Below the pieces are notes generated by a model. It made no database searches, was not told the origin of the DNA, and saw only the letters and a list, made by a program, of their open reading frames with translations. Of a DNA stretch of 14,190 nt, positions 1,742 to 14,190 are shown one piece after another. Every line of letters starts with the position of its first letter. Positions within the stretch are counted from its first letter, which is position 1. The stretch is from a virus. Taxonomy: Duplodnaviria; Heunggongvirae; Uroviricota; Caudoviricetes. The DNA is taken from the IMG/VR virus record IMGVR_UViG_2778261619_000008; one strand, given 5' to 3'. A program made the position numbers and the translations under genes.

Positions 1742-1928
1742 GAACACCTCCATTATTATTTCCAGTGGTTCGTTTATTCCATCTTTCGAGTGCTTCTTTT
1801 TCACTTCCACCATAACCGGTTCGGGATTCGCATCCGTTACACTTCGCTCGGTAATATCCTGAAATGGCTTTCACCGTTACTGATGGACAACCACAAAATG
1901 GACATGGTTTAACATTGTCATATCTCAT
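1734..1928 (-). CDS. ralR: RalR (Lar) restriction-alleviation protein / type I toxin DNase, 64 aa
   Basis: Within track ORF 1734..1967. The ATG at 1928 gives MRYDNVKPCPFCGCPSVTVKAISGYYRAKCNGCESRTGYGG..., a Cys-rich zinc-ribbon-like protein matching my memory of Rac RalR. An in-frame ATG 4 codons upstream (1940) is an alternative start. Confidence 0.82.
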   Translation of the reverse strand: MRYDNVKPCPFCGCPSVTVKAISGYYRAKCNGCESRTGYGGSEKEALERWNKRTTGNNNGGVHV

Positions 1929-1984
1929 AATTTTTCTCATAAAAAATATTTCAAGTTGGCGGTGCATTACACCGCCAGGCTGAA

Positions 1985-2794
1985 TTATTCCTCTGAATTA
2001 TCGATTACACTGTATTCCCCGGTTAATACAGAGGAATCTGCAGGATCGATTGTCAGTGGTTCCTTTTCATCCATTGATACTGCACGCTGGATCTCAATTG
2101 ATACGGGCAGATATTTGAACAGGCGACGAATAGCCGTTTTCTTTGCCATTTCTTCCCAGTGAGTTACCCACGGCCCGTTATTACCAGCTTTACTCAGGCT
2201 GCGCACCAGCTCAATCTGTTTGCGCGTCATAACTTCAAACTGAGTACCTCCGTCTTTCAGTCTTGCGACAGCATAGACGTGGGTAACCGGGGCATCTTCG
2301 TTTTCTCCCGGGCGGTGTATTAACTTTTCATCAAGGCCAAATTCGAAGCTAAACTCGTCACCTTCACGGACAACACGGGCTGACAGGCTGGCGATTTGAC
2401 CAGAACGGCGAGCCAGATCAATCATGCCGCGATAGCCAATGATTAGCTGAACGTTCTTTTTACCGCTCTTTTCGTTTTTATTACCAAAAGGCAGTAAATA
2501 TGCATGACCGAGGGCGCTACCTGGCTCAAGTCCGAGCTGTGAACACTGTACGATCGCACTGACAAAACTCATAGTGTCACAGTTTCCTAACGCCGGAACT
2601 TTACGAATTTCTGTGGTGGCGATACGGATCATACGTTCAGCCGTCATATGGCGTGGAAGAGCTGCTGCCAGTTGCTCTTTCATTGATGGCTGGTTAATAA
2701 AACTAATCACGTCGCTATTTTTAACTGCTGCTGGTGCACGGTTTCCCTGAGTTTTTTGCAGATCGGCTTTTGCGATTGGTGGTTGCTTAGTCAT
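1985..2794 (-). CDS. recT: RecT single-strand annealing protein, 269 aa
   Basis: Track ORF 1985..2851. The ATG at 2794 ([16 protein letters not shown]...) has an AAGGA Shine-Dalgarno 8 nt upstream. Sequence and length match Rac RecT. The start lies inside the last 8 nt of recE. Confidence 0.93.
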
Positions 2795-5387
2795 TTGCAT
2801 ATTCCTTAGCCCAGCGGGGCAGTGATAATGTCTTAATAGCTGGCCATTCATCGGTATTCAGGCAGTCAGACAGGGTTCGCAGATTGCGGTGATATTCCTG
2901 TTGACCTGCCAGTTTTGCTTCTTCGCCCATCATGAAAATTTCAACCGGATAACGTCCGCATTCAATAGTTGTGCTGGCAACCAGAAAAACGAAAGTTGGC
3001 TGCACTCCAAACTGTGCTTCATAACCGTCACTGTAGAATGCATCCTGAACGTGATAGCGGTAGTCGTAATAAGCGGTTTTGAATCGTTGAATATCCGCCG
3101 TAGTTTTCACGTCCATGATCCAGTGAAATTCAGGGATAATTTTGTCCGGACGGCACCGACACAAAATTCCTGTTTCAGGATCTTCCCAGTAAATTGATGA
3201 TTCAGCGTGTCCGGCGCTTTCAACAAGCCATTGCCCCAGCGGCAAAGCCATAACGCTTTGATACATGAGTTCAATTTTCCGGCCTTCTTCCGCAGTGATA
3301 ACCGTTTTTCCTGTGCTTGCGCATTCCATCAGAAACGCTTTCTCTTCTTCTTTTCCGGCGTTTGTACGGCGGTTAAATTCAGGTGCTACGATAAAGCGGT
3401 TACTGAATTCTTCCGGTTCAAGTACCCGGCAGTGGAAAGCAGTTCCTAAATCGAGCGTTTTTGTCTTTGTGGTGTCCACGGGGGCATTTTTACGCCACAA
3501 ATATAGTGCCGGAGTATCAGCAATGTCATCGAGCTGAGACTTACTGATACCGGGACCCGCGTGGTAATTCTCATTCGAAATTCCGTAATAAATACCTGGC
3601 TCTATGTCTTCTACGATTACGGGATCTGCGACTTCGCCAGTTTCATCACTGCAATCGCGATGGGGATCGCTGCCAGCATTCTCATTGTGCGGATGTTCAG
3701 CGCCTTCCATTTCCTCCGGATCATTTTCCTTAGCTTCAACCTGACTCTCTTCATCGAATGTTTCCTGGTATGTTGCGTCGCCCATCACCGCACCACAGTC
3801 AGGGCAGTTATCCCCGCCAGTCTGGCCGCAGGCATTGCAGGCTATTTCCGGTTCCTGTTGCACTACTGGCTCAGGTTGATTCATATCTGGGCTGGTTTTT
3901 TCCGTTTCTGGCTGGTTCTGGTACACACAATCGCGAGTCTGGATCCCCTTTACCCATTTCGGATCGTTCGGGTCGCTAATTCCGTCAACAAATTCACCAC
4001 GTGATGCAGCAAGCAATTTATCGGCATCGACAGGATTTTTTGATGGAATGTTTTTCCGGGCTTCATGGAGTTCTGCCCGCAGTTCCTGATATTTCGCATC
4101 AACAGAATTTACCTGTGACTGAGCATCCAGCGGCTGCGTGTCCTGATGATGTTCAGTTGCGTCCGGTTCCATTGTTTCAGCCTCTCCCTGTTCAACTGCC
4201 GTTGTTCCAGATGGTTGCGGTTTTTCTTCATCATCCTGTTTTCCTTCTTCTGTTACTCGCTGCGGCATCGGGGCAGAGGAGCGACCGCAGGCAATATCCA
4301 CGATTTCCGGATCAGGGTTGGCATGATCGGTTTCAGTCAGTACTTTGTTCAGATATTCAGTGACGTGCGCGGGGATGACCTCGATCCCAATTGGTGCTTC
4401 TTTTACGGACGCAACCACGATGGCGCGGGAATAATCCAGCCCGCCAGGCATGGTGATGAATTTGTCGCGGAAAACAGAAAAGGGCGGTTTATTTTCAGCG
4501 ATAATTTCCTCAATGCGTTTAGCGTGTGCCGGATGAAGGTTATAGATGTCCAGATCCATTGAACGGGCCAGTACGCCAGTGGCTACGTCGCGCGCCAGTG
4601 ACGTCAGATCGTGTACGAAACCTTCGCCGCGATCGGTGAGGTTTCCGCCGCCAGCATTAGCACCGGAAGCCGTGCGAGTGATGTGTGAAACACGATTACC
4701 CTTCATCCACTCTTTTGTCAGCAGTCCTCGATCGGTGTAGTCAGCGTTCAGGTATGCTTCGAAAAAAGCAGTTATCAGTCCCAGGTTTGAATTACCAGGA
4801 TTAGGGAAAACTTTGTCAGTGTCACGAACCAGTTTGTGGAGTTCGCGAATTTCCAGCGGGTCGAGCAGGCTGGTTTTGTGGGAAACAGCCAGGGCAGTAA
4901 CAGCCGGTAGTTCTTCAGCCCGAGCAATGTGTAATGCCTGGAGTCCGTCGCGTGAAACGTGCGTTACCGGTTTTTCGCTGCCGTGTTGAGCAAGCCAACG
5001 AATGGGCAGTTCCTGGCCAGAAATTGGGAGTAGCATATTCTCCTCAATCTCAGTCATGTCTTCGCCGTTGACGTTGGTATTGCCTTGATAGTGAGCGTTG
5101 TCTGGTGCTGCTCCCGGTTTTAGTTCCCATGTCATGGAGTCTTTGCTGAGTTGATAGCGTTCACTCCAGGTAAAATCGATCTCACCTTCAGCGGGCAGGT
5201 CATTAACGACAGGAAAATTCGTGGCAACAGCTTTAAAATAGCTGCTCAGTTTTTTACCTGACTTAACGATCAGGTAGTCCAGAGTGGCACAGGTCGATTC
5301 AAAATCGTTGCTTGCCCACAGGACGACGTCAGGTTCACCGGATGATTTTTTCGCTTTCCGTAACAGGAAGAGTGGTTTTGTGCTCAT
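2787..5387 (-). CDS. recE: RecE exonuclease VIII (5'-3' dsDNA exonuclease), 866 aa
   Basis: 866-aa track ORF ([24 protein letters not shown]...) with an acidic low-complexity middle and a C-terminal nuclease domain. Matches Rac RecE in sequence and length. A GAGG Shine-Dalgarno lies 9 nt upstream. Confidence 0.94.
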
Positions 5388-8994: not shown

Positions 8995-9783
8995 ATGGCT
9001 TCAAACTGGATAAAGCTCGAAGTTATTACGCCGGATAAGCCGGAAATATTCAGGCTTGCTGAGATTCTGAATATTGATCCAGATGCCGCATTAGGGAAAG
9101 TCATTCGCTTCTGGGCATGGGCGGATCAACAAATGATAGACGGTAACGCAGAGTGTAACGCTCGAGGCGTTACAAAAAGTGCAATAGACCGTATCACTTT
9201 TATGGCTGGTTTTGCTGATGCGTTAATTCAGGTTGGATGGCTGGTCGAAAGTGATGGAGTGCTTTCACTACCAAACTTTGAGCGTCATAACGGAAAAAGC
9301 TCGAAAAAACGGGCGGTTACAAACGAGAGAGTTACAAAAATACGCGAACTGAAGCGAAAAGGTAACGCTGCCAGCGTTACACAAACGGATCAAAAAGCGT
9401 TACCAGAGGAAGAGGAAGAGGAAGATATAAATACTGATCTCCCCCTAAATCCCCCTCGGCAAAAACGAGCGTCTAAACAATTCGAGCCGGAGGCCATTGC
9501 TCTGCCCGACTGGTTGCCAGAAACACTCTGGAATGAGTGGGTCCAGTTCAGGCAGGCATTGCGAAAACCGATTCGAACGGAGCAGGGCGCTAACGGGGCG
9601 ATACGGGAACTGGAAAAATTCCGCCAGCAGGGTTTTACCCCTGAGCAGGTGATTCGACACAGCATCGCCAATGAATACCAGGGCTTGTTCGCGCCGAAAA
9701 GTGTTCGGCCTGAGACGTTGCTCCGACAGGTTAACACTGTCTCGTTTCCGGACAGTGCGATCCCGCCAGGCTTCAGGGGGTAA
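8995..9783 (+). CDS. ydaU: Replication initiator, lambda O-like (YdaU-like), 262 aa
   Basis: Track ORF with an AAGGTG Shine-Dalgarno upstream. It sits directly upstream of a DnaC-like gene and contains a 19-bp dyad repeat array in its 5' half, as in lambda O where ori lies inside the gene. The C-terminal region is acidic/Pro-rich. Confidence 0.78.
   Translation: MASNWIKLEVITPDKPEIFRLAEILNIDPDAALGKVIRFWAWADQQMIDGNAECNARGVTKSAIDRITFMAGFADALIQVGWLVESDGVLSLPNFERHNGKSSKKRAVTNERVTKIRELKRKGNAASVTQTDQKALPEEEEEEDINTDLPLNPPRQKRASKQFEPEAIALPDWLPETLWNEWVQFRQALRKPIRTEQGANGAIRELEKFRQQGFTPEQVIRHSIANEYQGLFAPKSVRPETLLRQVNTVSFPDSAIPPGFRG
9155..9173. repeat. 19-bp dyad GTAACGC-N5-GCGTTAC, copy 2 (inside ydaU-like)
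   Basis: Inverted repeat read directly from the sequence. An extra GTAACGC half-site lies at 9143-9149. Confidence 0.6.
9362..9380. repeat. 19-bp dyad GTAACGCT-N3-AGCGTTAC, copy 3 (inside ydaU-like)
   Basis: Perfect 8-bp inverted repeat with a 3-nt spacer. Further half-sites lie at 9313-9320, 9330-9335 and 9397-9403. Confidence 0.6.
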
Positions 9784-9789
9784 CTGACC

Positions 9790-10536
9790 ATGAAAAATAT
9801 TGCGACAGGCGGCGTTCTGGAACGTATCCGCAGACTGGCCCCGCCACATGTAACCGCGCCATTCAGGACGGTGGCGGAGTGGCGCGAGTGGCAACTTGCA
9901 GAAGGCCAGAAACGTTGCGAGGAGATCAATCGCCAGAATCGTCAGTTGCGGGTGGAAAAAATTCTGAATCGCTCCGGCATCCAGCCGTTGCACCGCAAAT
10001 GCTCGTTTTCGAATTACCAGGTGCAGAACGACGGCCAGCGATACGCGTTGAGCCAGGCGAAATCCATCGCCGATGAACTGATGGTCGGGTGTACAAATTT
10101 TGCGTTTAGCGGAAAACCTGGTACCGGAAAAAACCATCTGGCGGCGGCTATCGGGAATCGCCTGCTGAAAAACGGTCAGACAGTGATTGTGGTTACCGTG
10201 GCTGATGTTATGAGTGCTCTACACGCCAGCTATGACGACGGGCAATCAGGCGAAAAATTTTTGCGGGAACTGTGCGAAGTGGATCTGCTGGTTCTTGATG
10301 AAATTGGCATTCAGCGCGAGACAAAAAACGAGCAGGTGGTACTGCACCAGATTGTTGATCGCCGGACAGCGTCGATCCGCAGCGTGGGGATGCTGACAAA
10401 CCTGAACTATGAGGCCATGAAAACATTGCTCGGCGAGAGGATTATGGATCGGATGACCATGAACGGCGGGCGATGGGTGAATTTTAACTGGGAGAGCTGG
10501 CGCCCGAATGTTGGTCAGCCAGGAATTGAGAAGTAA
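9790..10536 (+). CDS. ydaV: DnaC/IstB-like AAA+ helicase loader (YdaV-like), 248 aa
   Basis: Walker A motif FSGKPGTGKNHLAAAIG and Walker B motif DLLVLDEIG in the translation. Length and context match Rac ydaV. Confidence 0.88.
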   Translation: MKNIATGGVLERIRRLAPPHVTAPFRTVAEWREWQLAEGQKRCEEINRQNRQLRVEKILNRSGIQPLHRKCSFSNYQVQNDGQRYALSQAKSIADELMVGCTNFAFSGKPGTGKNHLAAAIGNRLLKNGQTVIVVTVADVMSALHASYDDGQSGEKFLRELCEVDLLVLDEIGIQRETKNEQVVLHQIVDRRTASIRSVGMLTNLNYEAMKTLLGERIMDRMTMNGGRWVNFNWESWRPNVGQPGIEK

Positions 10537-10558
10537 TTTTTACCGGGAGGAAATTTTA

Positions 10559-11284
10559 ATGGAGACCGTTTTTGACGCACTGAAAGCAATGGGAAAAGCC
10601 TCTTCCCAGGAAGTGGCAGCACGTCTGGGAATGACCCGGGATGAGGCGATTAACGAGCTGTGGAAACTGAAGCGTCGTGGGGAAGCTGATAACAAGGGCC
10701 CGATGTGGTGGTTGACTCAAACCGACGAAAACGCATCTGTAGCACAGGCTTCTAAAGTGACAGCGCAAATGCTGATCGAGGCGATTGAACAGCATGGCCC
10801 TAAAGCGGCTGATGAACTTGCACTGATATTCAGAATTACTTCCCGCAGGGTGAACTCATCGCTGGCTATGGCCATCAGCAAAGGTCGTCTGATTCGCGTA
10901 AATCAGAACGGTAAATTTCGTTACTGCCTGCCGGACGGTAATTTACCAGCAGAGCCGAAAGTTGTATCGGTAGTGAAAACACCTGGTAAAGGCTTTCCTC
11001 AGCCAGCCGGTGTTGCGTTACCAGTACAGGAAGCGGCAACACAGGAAGAAATTAAAACAGATACTGTGGGGGACATTGTGCAGTCACTACCATCGTTCAC
11101 TGAAACGCGAGCCAATGACCTGATTATACCATCGCTGCAAATGGCAAACCGCGAACTGCGCCGGGCGAAAAGTTATGTCCAGAAGTGGGAGCGAGTCTGC
11201 GCCGCGCTGCGTGAGCTGAACAAGCACCAGGATATTGTCCGTCAGATTGTCGATTCCTCCAGTCGTATTGTGTCGGAAAAGTGA
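10559..11284 (+). CDS. Uncharacterised prophage protein with N-terminal winged-helix-like region, 241 aa (possibly YdaW/DUF1627-like)
   Basis: Track ORF 10508..11284. The ATG at 10559 has a GGGAGG Shine-Dalgarno 8 nt upstream (METVFDALKAMGKASSQEVAARLGMTRDEAINELWKLKRRGE...). The C-terminus is predicted helical/charged. Family assignment is from memory and unverified. Confidence 0.65.
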   Translation: METVFDALKAMGKASSQEVAARLGMTRDEAINELWKLKRRGEADNKGPMWWLTQTDENASVAQASKVTAQMLIEAIEQHGPKAADELALIFRITSRRVNSSLAMAISKGRLIRVNQNGKFRYCLPDGNLPAEPKVVSVVKTPGKGFPQPAGVALPVQEAATQEEIKTDTVGDIVQSLPSFTETRANDLIIPSLQMANRELRRAKSYVQKWERVCAALRELNKHQDIVRQIVDSSSRIVSEK

Positions 11285-11300
11285 TTCTAGGGGAGGGCTT

Positions 11301-11723
11301 ATGGCAAAAGTATTAACACAGGAAGAGCGAGAAAAAATTAAAGGGCAGATTGTTGATCTCGTACGCCAGAGTGGGCGCGAGACGTTAAGGCAACTGGAGG
11401 CCAAGACAGGGGCGACAAGATATCTGATGAGCATTCTTGCCAGAGAGTTGGTTGCCAGTGGCGATGTATACAACTCTGGCTATGGGTTATTTACCTCTGA
11501 ACAGGCTCGTAAGGACTGGAATAACGCCCGCAAAAAACTATCCAGGGCAAAGGTGAAAAAAACGGTTGTGGTTGATCCTGACCTTATCTGGTCATTACCA
11601 GACGGAGAAATACGCCGATATGACGGGCGTCTGAATATAATCTGTAGCGAGTGCCGTAAGAGCGAAGTTATGAAGCGTGTACTGATGTTTTATCGAGGAA
11701 GTATCCAGGAATTTATTCGGTAA
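11301..11723 (+). CDS. Uncharacterised protein, 140 aa, HTH-like N-terminus and C-terminal CxxC
   Basis: Track ORF 11235..11723. The ATG at 11301 has a GGGGAGGG Shine-Dalgarno upstream (MAKVLTQEEREKIKGQIVDLVRQSGRETLRQLEAKTGATRYLMSILARELVASGDV...). Its N-terminal pattern resembles that of the preceding gene. Confidence 0.6.
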   Translation: MAKVLTQEEREKIKGQIVDLVRQSGRETLRQLEAKTGATRYLMSILARELVASGDVYNSGYGLFTSEQARKDWNNARKKLSRAKVKKTVVVDPDLIWSLPDGEIRRYDGRLNIICSECRKSEVMKRVLMFYRGSIQEFIR

Positions 11724-11859
11724 GCAAAATCAAAATGTAATCGCTCAAGTTTAAGTTGGTGTATCTACGGCGCAGAGCCATCGCCTCATCTGGCACTGCG
11801 CTAAAATCAAATTTAGTTCCACTCTTTATTTTGTATCTGCTAAAACGCTACATAAGATT

Positions 11860-12132
11860 TTACTTTTTTAAAGAATAAGGGAATATGTGCACCATATTGG
11901 AGGCTAGTGGATATATTCCTATGCTACGAGTTGTCTTTTTTAGTTGATCTATGCTTGCTTCTTTATCGGGAGCCCGGCCTCCCCACACTGTAACTCCCTC
12001 AGGTATATCGATTGGGCGACTTTTGTTTTCATCTGTGATTTCAATCGTTTCCCCATTATTAAGCGTAATAATCAACGATGACACGTCCAGGTGTTGTGTA
12101 TTCCCATTTTTATTTTTAATATCTATTTTCAT
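11860..12132 (-). CDS. Orphan hypothetical protein, 90 aa, in an AT-rich segment
   Basis: Track ORF MKIDIKNKNGNTQHLDVSSLIITLNNGETIEITDENKSRPIDIPEGVTVWGG... is hydrophilic with no signal peptide. There is no Shine-Dalgarno, but a perfect TATAAT on the minus strand (plus coordinates 12142-12147) sits where a leaderless mRNA would start. Coding status is uncertain. Confidence 0.35.
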   Translation of the reverse strand: MKIDIKNKNGNTQHLDVSSLIITLNNGETIEITDENKSRPIDIPEGVTVWGGRAPDKEASIDQLKKTTRSIGIYPLASNMVHIFPYSLKK

Positions 12133-12402
12133 GGCTATTTCATTATATGTTATCTGTGCTGGAGTAATAAGTTTACGGTATTAAGAAGCATTTTGACGAA
12201 ACAATCAACTGACTTATCAGCTAAGGTGGCATTGTAATGCGATCTGATTGGTATCATCAGGACGCTGTTCAAAAAAGGGGGATTAGTTGATCTTGAAATC
12301 TTGCTCAAAATGTGTAGCCTCTCGTTTAACTGCCAACTTTTTGGGGCAGTACACTCTGATGCTACACAACTTGCAAGTTTCATTACCCCGACGTAAACAT
12401 TT

Positions 12403-13071
12403 ATGACAGTTGCTGATTTCAAACGTCCTAAGTTGGAGCTCCCAAACGGGGCAAACAAACTACTATTACACTCTTGTTGTGCACCATGTTCCGGTGAAGT
12501 GATGGAGGCTCTTCAGGCCTCAGGAATCGACTACACCATCTTCTTCTATAATCCGAACATTCATCCTCAGAAAGAGTATTTGATTCGTAAGAATGAGAAT
12601 ATTCGATATGCTGAACAACATGGTGTACCGTTTATCGATGCTGATTACGACACTGACAACTGGTTTGAGCGAGCCAAAGGAATGGAATGGGAGCCCGAAC
12701 GTGGGAGGCGTTGTACTATGTGTTTTGACATGCGTTTTGAACGGACGGCGCTGTACGCCGCTGAAAATGGTTTCAGTGTGATCAGCAGTTCACTGGGCAT
12801 TTCTCGCTGGAAAAATATGCAGCAGGTTAACGACAGCGGACGGCGAGCTGTCGCACATTATCCGGGCATGGTGTACTGGGATTATAACTGGCGCAAGCAG
12901 GGAGGCTCGTCCCGCATGATTGAAATCAGCAAACGCGAACAATTCTATCAGCAGGAATATTGTGGTTGCGTGTATTCACTTCGCGATACCAATTTACACC
13001 GCAAATCCCAGGGACGCCCTCTTATCAAAATTGGTCAACTCCACTACGGTAAAGAAGAAGGGCAGGAATGA
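12403..13071 (+). CDS. queH: Epoxyqueuosine reductase QueH-like (DUF208), 222 aa
   Basis: The translation contains the [11 protein letters not shown] motif near the N-terminus and a later CxxC ([16 protein letters not shown]), which I recognise as the DUF208/QueH signature. The RBS is weak. Not verified by search. Confidence 0.75.
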
Positions 13072-13380
13072 TTTTTACATTACGTCAACAGAGTGTCACA
13101 ACGTTTCTATATATGGTATGCCGACCGTAATTTTCGAATCATCATGACTAATAGGCAGGTCACCTATGCCAGCAATGACCTGCTCATCTTGAAATTAGCA
13201 GAAATCTTGTAGCTATGATGTAGCTCAAAATAGTTTTTCATTCTTTTACCTGATGTCTGTTCCTGGCTGAAAACAGACTGTATTATTTAATTACGCACCA
13301 CTGACACTTGTTTATTGAAGTAGTGAGTACAAAGCCACATATTTATCAGTGTATGTATACGTCAAAAACAGGAGATTGTT

Positions 13381-13470
13381 GTGCTGGTTCTGAAGTGTGC
13401 GTTAGCAATAGTGGCTGTGGTGGCAATTTATTGCCTTGTTGTTGTTCTTATGGAGCGACTTTCTGATTGA
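13381..13470 (+). CDS. Candidate small hydrophobic peptide, 29 aa (GTG start)
   Basis: Hand-translated: AGGAG at 13370-13374, then GTG at 13381, giving MLVLKCALAIVAVVAIYCLVVVLMERLSD, a single predicted transmembrane helix with a charged C-terminus. It is below the ORF-track cut-off. Confidence 0.3.
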   Translation: MLVLKCALAIVAVVAIYCLVVVLMERLSD

Positions 13471-13615
13471 TTACATACTGGCTAAAAAAAGCGTTTGCCT
13501 GGTTTATCTTTGTCCGGCAAGGTGCGCTCATTAATCTGAAGTAAATTTATTTCTTAAGTATTCAGATTACTTCTTATGGTCGAAGTCTCCTGGCAATGTA
13601 GAACCAAAATATTTA

Positions 13616-13653
13616 CAAAAAGGAGACCCGTCGGGGATAGCCCTGCCGGGTCT
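13616..13653 (-). terminator. Candidate Rho-independent terminator after the yeaR-like gene
   Basis: On the minus strand, a GC-rich hairpin (GACCCGGCAGGG / CCCCGACGGGTC, about 12 bp with 2 mismatches, loop CTAT) is followed by CC and a TTTTT run. It lies about 30 nt downstream of the stop codon. Confidence 0.55.
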
Positions 13654-13682
13654 GACTGTTAAAGCATTTTTAATATGATCAT

Positions 13683-14021
13683 CTATTTTTTGGTGCTATA
13701 GACTTTTTCGCCTGAGAAGTCTGGAGCGACCCAAAAGTTAATATTAAACTGAGCATCATCGCTTAGTTCAACACGGTGCCAGTATTGTGGTGGGCTTGTT
13801 GCAAAAGAGCCAGCATTAATAACTACTTTTATCTCTGGTTCAGTAGTATTCTCATCAGCAAAACCATAATATGTTACAGTGCCTTCCATTACGCACAACT
13901 GCCCAAAAACACCTGCTGCTGTATTATGATGTGTTAATAATGCTGAAGGTACGTTCTCTTTTGTGAAGAACGGAGTTGAGCGTTTGATTACCCAATCTTT
14001 AGGAATTCTCTTGTGTGTCAT
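13683..14021 (-). CDS. YeaR-like DUF1971 protein (tellurite-resistance TehB-associated domain family), 112 aa
   Basis: Track ORF 13683..14027 starts at a GTG. The ATG at 14021 has AGGAGG 5 nt upstream. The translation (...RSTPFF...HHNTAAGVFGQLCVMEGTVTYYGFADE...AGSFATSPPQYWHRVEL...FNINFWVAP) follows the YeaR/DUF1971 pattern as I remember it. Confidence 0.75.
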   Translation of the reverse strand: MTHKRIPKDWVIKRSTPFFTKENVPSALLTHHNTAAGVFGQLCVMEGTVTYYGFADENTTEPEIKVVINAGSFATSPPQYWHRVELSDDAQFNINFWVAPDFSGEKVYSTKK

Positions 14022-14036
14022 AACCACCTCCTATAA

Positions 14037-14059
14037 AACATGCATTATGAATGCTCCTT
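14037..14059. promoter_or_regulatory. NsrR-like dyad overlapping the putative -10 of the yeaR-like gene
   Basis: AACATGCATTATGAATGCTCCTT resembles the 11-1-11 NsrR consensus (AAGATGCATTT-N-AAATACATCTT), about 17 of 23 positions by my alignment. The minus-strand hexamers TTGACA (14071-14076) and CATAAT (14044-14049) are 21 bp apart, which is not canonical spacing. Confidence 0.3.
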
Positions 14060-14190
14060 TTGAGGAGTTATGTCAAGCTGTTATGAAACACATAATTGAT
14101 ATGTTGATTAGAGGATAGACTGGCCCCCTGAATCTCCAGACAACCAATATCACTTAAATAAGTGATAGTCTTAATACTAGTTTTTAGACT

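Follow-up and report, generated by a model that had tools for sequence, protein, structure and literature searches.

We analysed a 14,190-nucleotide stretch of DNA (IMG/VR record IMGVR_UViG_2778261619_000008; the window), which is the integrase-proximal half, or early region, of the Escherichia coli Rac prophage, and concentrated on two adjacent genes, A and B, that occupy positions 10,559–11,723. The initial annotation could assign neither to a family; in fact, gene A is an intact ydaW (DUF1627) and gene B is lygF (DUF977), which sequence comparisons place in the Ren family of phage lambda. We regard these identities as virtually certain. As to function, we suggest that both are dispensable accessory proteins of the replication module, plausibly shielding phage replication from abortive infection. 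This mechanism, taken by itself, is tentative; for identity and mechanism stated together, we estimate a probability of about 0.55.

The pair is already known as two annotated families, named ydaW and lygF in GenBank phage records and labelled in RefSeq phage records, where Shigella phage 75/02 Stx has the order DnaC-like helicase loader, DUF1627 domain-containing protein, and Ren-like exclusion protein. As these are catalogued families, the importance for discovery is small. What the present analysis adds is the recognition of DUF977/LygF as a Ren homologue in the ren slot, of a short invariant C-terminal motif on one or two winged helices as the definition of the Ren family, of a third conserved helical module in intact YdaW that is missing from the much-studied K-12 allele, and of ydaW as an optional insert ahead of the Ren-like gene. 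The features of the two genes, all on the + strand, are listed below, with confidence given as the AlphaFold2 predicted local distance difference test (pLDDT).

10545..10550, +, Shine-Dalgarno site of gene A, GGGAGG, read from the sequence; it ends 8 nt before the ATG
10559..11284, +, gene A, intact ydaW, 241 amino acids, DUF1627 (Pfam PF07789, phrog_630)
10559..10723, +, gene A, winged-helix domain 1, residues 1–55 (pLDDT 94–97)
10763..10933, +, gene A, winged-helix domain 2, residues 69–125 (pLDDT 94–96)
10934..11134, +, gene A, Pro/Ala-rich linker, residues 126–192, predicted to be disordered (pLDDT ~55–64)
11135..11275, +, gene A, conserved C-terminal helical hairpin, residues 193–239 (predicted helices 193–222 and 224–239, pLDDT ~95)
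11290..11297, +, Shine-Dalgarno site of gene B, GGGGAGGG, read from the sequence
11301..11723, +, gene B, lygF, 140 amino acids, DUF977, Ren-like (Pfam PF06163, phrog_142)
11319..11492, +, gene B, winged-helix domain, residues 7–64 (pLDDT 84–93), which aligns with lambda Ren 5–50
11493..11633, +, gene B, middle stretch, residues 65–111: basic helix (ARKDWNNARKKLSRAKVKK) and low-confidence segment
11634..11699, +, gene B, Ren-type C-terminal motif N-I-I-C-x-E-C-R-x-S-x-x-M-K-R-V-L-x-x-Y-x-G, residues 112–133

The initial annotation was accurate about the two genes themselves: their coordinates and sequences, their position after the helicase loader, the 16-nt spacing, the two strong Shine-Dalgarno sites (both of the GGAGG type), and the quoted peptides (A residues 12–42 and B residues 24–55) are all as it described.

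Gene B is a longer relative of lambda Ren

Gene B runs from an ATG at 11,301 to a stop codon at 11,721–11,723 and begins 16 nt after gene A. Its product matches the entire DUF977 profile (positions 1–134 of 134) with 98.3 bits (E = 4.7e-28), and because this score exceeds the gathering cut-off of 22.1 bits, we take the gene to be real and not a chance open reading frame. Homologues of B start at MAKV, so this start is right and the longer frame called mechanically from 11,235 is wrong. The protein is 100% identical to RefSeq WP_001151415.1 ("DUF977 family protein") and matches phrog_142, "Ren-like exclusion protein", at 4e-43. The same profile is matched at 1.6e-41 by lambda Ren itself (from J02459), and hhalign aligns the DUF977 set with a set of Ren-like proteins at 98.2% probability (E = 3.2e-14), B 13–132 against Ren 5–96. 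A joint alignment of 16 sequences, lambda Ren among them, shows a winged-helix head, a variable middle, and the tail N-x-I-(C/F)-x-E-C-R-x-S-x-x-M-(K/Q)-R-(V/I)-L-x-x-(Y/W)-x-G. N112, C118, R119, S121, M124, R126, L128, and G133 are invariant across DUF977 proteins, lambda Ren, and the Ren-like proteins of Enterobacter. On this evidence from PHROG, hhalign, and the shared C-terminal motif, we conclude that B is a longer member of the lambda Ren family, in the DUF977/LygF branch; clear homology to Ren is what the initial annotation itself had named as evidence against its reading.

The two proteins thus share a PHROG, a winged-helix head, the invariant C-terminal motif, and the ren slot, which in lambda directly follows P. 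They differ in length (140 amino acids in B, 96 in lambda Ren), and alignments place the difference between head and motif, where the middle stretch of B with its basic helix is some 35–45 residues longer than its counterpart. Pairwise identity is about 28%, BLASTP detects only the last 20 residues (E = 5e-6), and the Pfam DUF977 profile fails to detect lambda Ren. Compared with other LygF/DUF977 proteins (Salmonella Enteritidis Sdr I; Shigella phage 75/02 gp18), B is a full-length member with 64–100% identity and does not differ from them materially. The name lygF traces to the Sdr I region and implies no function; a literature search on "lygF" returned mostly unrelated matches.

For B, AlphaFold2 worked from a shallow alignment (84–90% identity), and the C-terminal half of the model is unreliable: the winged helix and a helix at residues 67–83 are confident, residues 84–109 have a pLDDT below 50, and the tail is not confident. 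A Foldseek search of the PDB with this model gave generic winged-helix neighbours only. DUF977 has previously been called a winged helix by HHpred and COMPASS (PMC2686095).

A scan of one genome per species found Ren-like proteins of 97–114 amino acids in Enterobacter, Leclercia, and Silvania, and two winged helices fused to a Ren tail in Pseudocitrobacter and in an Enterobacter metagenome-assembled genome (MAG). These two-domain proteins (L179 3021–3599, Pseudocitrobacter vendiensis, and L183 1056–1814, the Enterobacter MAG) have about 190 residues, and their first winged helix together with a "GFGYF..S..EW" segment resembles the N-terminal half of DUF977. From the sequences, DUF977 may have been derived from the two-domain Ren form by loss of the second winged helix.

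Gene A is an intact YdaW

Gene A starts at an ATG at 10,559, 22 nt past the ydaV stop codon (10,534–10,536), and ends with TGA at 11,282–11,284. Its match to DUF1627 spans the whole profile (positions 1–155 of 155; 286.1 bits, E = 7.6e-86); the score is so far above the gathering cut-off of 28.1 bits that the gene is not a chance open reading frame. Here too, the start shared by homologues (METV) is right and the longer mechanical frame from 10,508 is wrong. The protein matches phrog_630 at 2.8e-113 and is 100% identical to RefSeq WP_000450652.1 ("DUF1627 domain-containing protein"). The family is small (162 clusters at 50% identity among 1.84 billion representatives).

When 36 full-length relatives (19–66% identity to A) are aligned, conservation is seen in two blocks and again at the C-terminus, with two linkers that vary. 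The AlphaFold2 model (mean pLDDT 82) has three confident modules, and A is therein predicted to consist of two tandem winged helices, a flexible linker, and a conserved helical hairpin. The first winged helix is modelled as helices 4–11, 16–23, and 27–39 and a beta hairpin at 43–52; it contains L34 and W50, which are invariant across the diverse homologues. The linker differs in sequence and length across the alignment. An IPSFTE...DLIIPS motif precedes the C-terminal hairpin, in which R201 is nearly invariant. The C-terminal module is also found behind a single winged helix in relatives of 117–138 amino acids; the minimal plan of the A family, a winged-helix head and a conserved tail, is the Ren plan.

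Foldseek of the A model against the PDB identified the tandem winged-helix proteins ScpB, SelB, ESCRT-II, and AlkX/YcaQ (E ~1e-4 to 1e-3), and against BFVD it returned generic phage helix-turn-helix proteins only. ScpB, the SelB C-terminus, ESCRT-II subunits, and AlkX/YcaQ have two consecutive winged helices, as A does (Foldseek E ~2e-4 to 5e-4), but identity is 12–20%, the template modelling score for the model as a whole is ~0.2, and they do not belong to one sequence family with A. They also lack the linker and the C-terminal hairpin of A, and we regard this as a resemblance only.

E. coli K-12 YdaW (b1361, L188 3253–3813) is the product of this gene at the corresponding locus, again after ydaV, but has 186 amino acids and matches residues 1–138 of A, which include both winged helices, at 55% identity; the winged-helix part of the A allele in the window is a different and rarer one. 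An internal deletion in the K-12 Rac prophage took the hairpin together with the DUF977 gene and all that follows as far as rzpR, so K-12 YdaW has no C-terminal hairpin and no DUF977 gene lies downstream of it, whereas the window carries the intact 241-residue form. As the K-12 protein is truncated by this deletion, published results on K-12 ydaW, including its description as a blocker of the toxin RcaT (below), concern a fragment. The deletion also removed nin-like genes, a Q-type gene, and most lysis genes. The initial annotation had allowed that gene A might be a DUF1627 pseudogene fragment with no conserved partner; it does belong to DUF1627, but it is intact, and in 75 of 79 close loci its conserved partner follows it.

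Comparison of the winged-helix domains

The initial annotation described winged-helix-like N-termini that then diverge, and the models agree, with confident winged helices at A 1–55 and B 7–64. Its further point, that the two N-termini are similar, stands at the profile level and fails in pairwise comparison, where BLASTP finds no similarity between A and B (E = 1.1). Residues 2–52 of A match phrog_142 at 6.7e-5 and share secondary PHROGs with Ren. In hhalign, the first winged helix of A aligns with Ren-like proteins at 85% probability (E = 6e-6), the second at 97% (E = 4e-11), and the two with each other at 92%. The C-terminal module of A gave nothing against the B and Ren profiles (probability 0.2%). 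These results fit a common phage winged-helix lineage for the A and B domains; because winged helices cross-match easily, they offer no strong support for any particular duplication.

The top PDB sequence matches of both profiles (window 10559–10933 and 11319–11492) were ADAR1 Z-beta/Z-alpha, PKZ Z-alpha, and AspA, an archaeal centromere binder. These matches are weak (E 1e-7 to 1e-3 overall; 1.7e-5 to 1.7e-7 for those considered in the Z-alpha comparison). We rejected a Z-DNA-binding (Z-alpha) identity since no Asn or Tyr is conserved in helix 3 across 36 A homologues; the invariant positions of the first winged helix are limited to L34 and the Trp of the wing, W50. The Z-alpha matches are read as a minimal winged-helix resemblance only.

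Linkage and position

Linkage was counted in IMG/VR, using the 80 closest B loci and the 79 A loci with room downstream. B was found 7–16 nt downstream of A in 75 of the 79. In the other direction, 54 of the 80 B loci have an A match about 18 nt upstream, comprising 51 full-length copies, two C-terminal remnants (L009, at a contig end, and L051, after a deletion), and one frame-disrupted copy (L076); the remaining 26 have no A-like sequence upstream. In 24 of the 25 of these that could be inspected, B lies 40 nt past an O-like initiator with no loader, an arrangement also seen in phage HannyBb; the exception is L039, and L023, the 26th, sits at a contig end.

Six distant DUF1627 proteins (28–39% identity to A) have other neighbours:

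L189, after an unassigned 346-amino-acid gene, before a Lar-like small gene
L190, after a DnaT-domain initiator-like gene, before an Rrf2-type winged-helix gene
L195, after a lambda-P-like loader, before an Rrf2-type winged-helix gene
L191, after RecE
L193, at the contig start
L194, two genes after a DUF977 gene, in a recE-recT operon

Five of the six have no Ren-like gene downstream, and the sixth (L194) has its DUF977 gene two genes upstream. We rejected an obligate A-B module on these counts: A and B are frequent neighbours in Escherichia and Shigella lambdoid phages but do not form an obligate pair, and ydaW is an optional insertion ahead of B. The L194 operon (1798–3283) reads recE-recT-DUF977-NinX-DUF1627, and in phage PhiR46_1 (L165 2902–3920), exonuclease VIII is followed by LygF. 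DUF977 and DUF1627 are thus not confined to the replication module, as both also occur in recombination operons.

The alleles are mosaic; the winged-helix part of A is often 60–66% identical where the C-terminal module is 80–92% and B 86–90% identical, and the joints map to the linker. In L051 (3842–4408), a remnant of the YdaW C-terminal module stands alone beside a DUF977 gene, after sieB, and P0245 and P0256 are in-frame fusions of an O-like initiator N-terminus with the C-terminal part of YdaW. Recombination joints lie in the YdaW linker or upstream of it, so that the C-terminal module moves together with the Ren-like gene.

A survey of replication types in Enterobacter, Leclercia, Silvania, and Pseudocitrobacter showed that Ren-like genes close the replication module after a DnaB-like, a DnaC-like, or a putative P-like (L185) gene. 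Lambda ren directly follows P, and B follows ydaU-ydaV-ydaW, so that both stand at the distal end of the module; lambda has no counterpart of the extra gene that separates loader and B in the window. The order ydaU-ydaV-A is common to the window, NZ_CP031105, K-12, and Stx phage 75/02, as expected of the DUF1627/YdaW locus, and the full order O-like, DnaC-like, DUF1627, DUF977 is shared by the window and Stx phage 75/02. The initial annotation placed the genes in the variable nin region; they instead belong to the distal replication operon, in the slot of lambda ren, and a variable moron-like block begins only after 11,723.

Genes A and B are co-oriented with the cro-like gene, ydaT, ydaU, and ydaV, with gaps of 22 and 16 nt before A and B. 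A consensus scan from the cro-like gene to the end of B found no promoter-like or terminator-like site on the + strand, and promoter-like sites were fewer than in shuffled sequences. GC content is about 50% through A and most of B, falls in the 3' part of B, and is 37–42% downstream. Rfam over 9,700–12,500 (E ≤ 1) gave no family above its cut-off; we rejected a sub-threshold CRISPR-DR match as chance (21 bits against a cut-off of 39). We infer that the early rightward replication operon ends with A and B and that induction or infection would switch them on together with the replication genes; from this layout and the lambda model, they should be silent in the repressed lysogen.

Function and alternative explanations

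Our suggestion is that A and B serve the replication module as accessory proteins that the phage can do without. The winged-helix head of each would bind DNA or the replication complex, and the conserved tail, the Ren motif in B and the helical hairpin in A, would make protein contacts. The likely benefit would be that the replicating phage is guarded from abortive-infection or exclusion systems. Lambda ren mutants are reportedly excluded by Rex (Toothman and Herskowitz, 1980). Transcription of lambda ren starts at pR and also covers O and P, and two-hybrid assays showed interactions of Rex proteins with O and Ren (10.1101/2021.04.19.439022). In a TIC/TAC screen, overexpressed K-12 ydaW was one of a number of prophage genes that blocked RcaT, the retron-Sen2 toxin (10.1101/2020.06.22.160242). 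Protection of this kind is known genetically for Ren against lambda RexAB; for ydaW the only pointer to it is the single RcaT screen hit.

Several observations weigh against our suggestion. The RcaT hit is one overexpression-screen result, obtained with the truncated K-12 allele that lacks the hairpin. The label "Ren-like" carries over a phenotype, not a mechanism, and B has a large insertion relative to Ren and a tail modelled with low confidence from a shallow alignment. Winged helices cross-match so readily that the link between the A domains and Ren may reflect the superfamily alone. The occurrence of distant DUF1627 genes in other contexts (RecE, Rrf2-type, Lar-like) weakens a strictly replication-linked role.

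It is doubtful that A and B are ordinary transcription factors of the winged-helix type (MarR/ArsR/GntR kind) that tune delayed-early or late phage genes or host genes and take no part in replication or counter-defence. In favour of this, structure and sequence searches bring up DNA-binding winged-helix regulators and the centromere binder AspA as the closest neighbours, a published list of predicted but functionally uncharacterised E. coli transcription factors includes YdaW (PMC9308461), and A has, in the model, two winged helices and a possibly dimerising hairpin. However, no Pfam regulator family matches at cut-off, no regulatory role has been reported for Ren, and the genes sit at the end of several unrelated types of replication module and not beside a promoter or operator region. 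Nor did repeated operator-like sites come to light near the genes, although no search aimed at them was made. That same invariant position at the end of the module would suit direct replication factors, that is, adaptors from initiator or loader to DnaB or the origin, with anti-exclusion being secondary; tandem winged helices are frequent among proteins that act in replication or organise chromosomes, for example ScpB, and ren has been called "likely involved in DNA replication" (Thomason preprint, 10.1101/2021.04.19.439022). We think this unlikely: the K-12 Rac prophage has lost the ydaW C-terminus and the entire DUF977 gene, and 26 of the 80 B loci do without A-like sequence upstream. Moreover, lambda ren is dispensable for replication.

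The initial annotation raised the idea of accessory, anti-host, or defence functions. That the pair is a prophage defence, exclusion, or toxin-antitoxin module for the benefit of the lysogen is the least likely of the alternatives, and we consider it very improbable. A small winged-helix protein and tight spacing do resemble an antitoxin-toxin layout, Rac bears other host-affecting genes (sieB, kilR, ralR), and phrog_142 belongs to the PHROG class "moron, auxiliary metabolic gene and host takeover". However, PADLOC gave no significant match (best for A E = 0.013, SWIM_XIII, 12 bits; none for B), Pfam and NCBIfam show no recognisable enzymatic or toxin domain in either protein, and NCBIfam has nothing above cut-off for either. 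The tight spacing follows replication genes with no + strand promoter-like site of the pair's own, and the genes are presumably silent in the lysogen. Either gene occurs without the other (B without A in the 26 loci above, distant A without B), unlike the members of obligate pairs, and "exclusion" in the name of Ren refers to resisting exclusion, not to causing it.

Shielding of replication by accessory proteins remains our preferred suggestion. A stronger version, in which ydaW and the Ren-like gene would close the replication operon as a counter-defence unit of two proteins built on one plan, is quite improbable. If true, the heads would dock on replicating phage DNA or the replisome and the tails would neutralise abortive-infection effectors, with Ren-type tails acting against RexAB-like systems and the YdaW type against retron toxins like RcaT; hypervariable winged-helix alleles would then reflect an arms race. 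As ydaW has once come up as a blocker of a retron toxin, the pair is a reasonable, cheap candidate for a possible role against abortive infection. Overall, what the initial annotation observed is confirmed, and its interpretation is partly supported.

The Rac locus and neighbouring genes

In a search of 5426 complete genomes, the 1165-bp stretch of A and B was 100% identical to nine complete E. coli chromosomes, and parts of it were matched in 3649 of the 5426; both families are present in about two-thirds of complete E. coli genomes. In strain AMSCJX02, the Rac locus adjoins ttcA and runs intR, xisR, rcbA, ralR, recT, recE, racC, ydaE, kilR, sieB, ydaF, then an unnamed hypothetical gene, repressor, cro-like, ydaT, O-like, ydaV, and the DUF1627 and DUF977 genes. 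A small block (hypothetical open reading frame, QueH, DUF1971) follows, and then DUF1367, DUF1364, and a DUF1133 gene, which carries the label antiterminator Q in the Rac record MN652886. The neighbours of A and B in the window are as follows.

8995..9783, +, ydaU, O-like replication initiator, start of the replication module; annotated in NZ_CP031105 and K-12
9790..10536, +, ydaV, DnaC/IstB-like helicase loader (Pfam IstB_IS21 1.4e-19, Bac_DnaA 1.7e-8)
11860–12132, −, hypothetical open reading frame of 90 amino acids, moron-like block
12403–13071, QueH, epoxyqueuosine reductase, moron-like block (Pfam 1e-65)
13683–14027, −, DUF1971 protein, moron-like block

Pfam at E ≤ 0.1 yields no match for ydaU. 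Its C-terminal tail (window 9740–9783, ...IPPGFRG) is common to four types of O-like initiator, with the consensus ...(S/E)PD..(A/E)IPPGFRG in YdaU and in the IMG/VR loci L011 (2941–3960), L017 (1336–2412), and L039 (2983–3960). The three initiators in these loci have 339, 358, and 325 amino acids, and their N-termini are unlike YdaU and unlike each other. All four precede a DUF977/Ren-like gene, directly or via ydaV-ydaW. Judged from the sequences, the common tail could be a docking motif for one shared partner.

DUF977 genes with 81–87% identity, of a type characteristic of E. coli prophages, were also seen on contigs from MAGs named "Collinsella sp." (L168, L170) and "Veillonella parvula" (L169); these occurrences in Gram-positive or Veillonella MAGs are almost certainly binning contamination. 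Between the Ren-like gene and the DUF1367/DUF1364/DUF1133(Q) genes, the window (11724–14190) holds a low-GC (37–42%) moron-like block. E. coli normally uses QueG, and a QueH borne on a prophage is unusual for this species.

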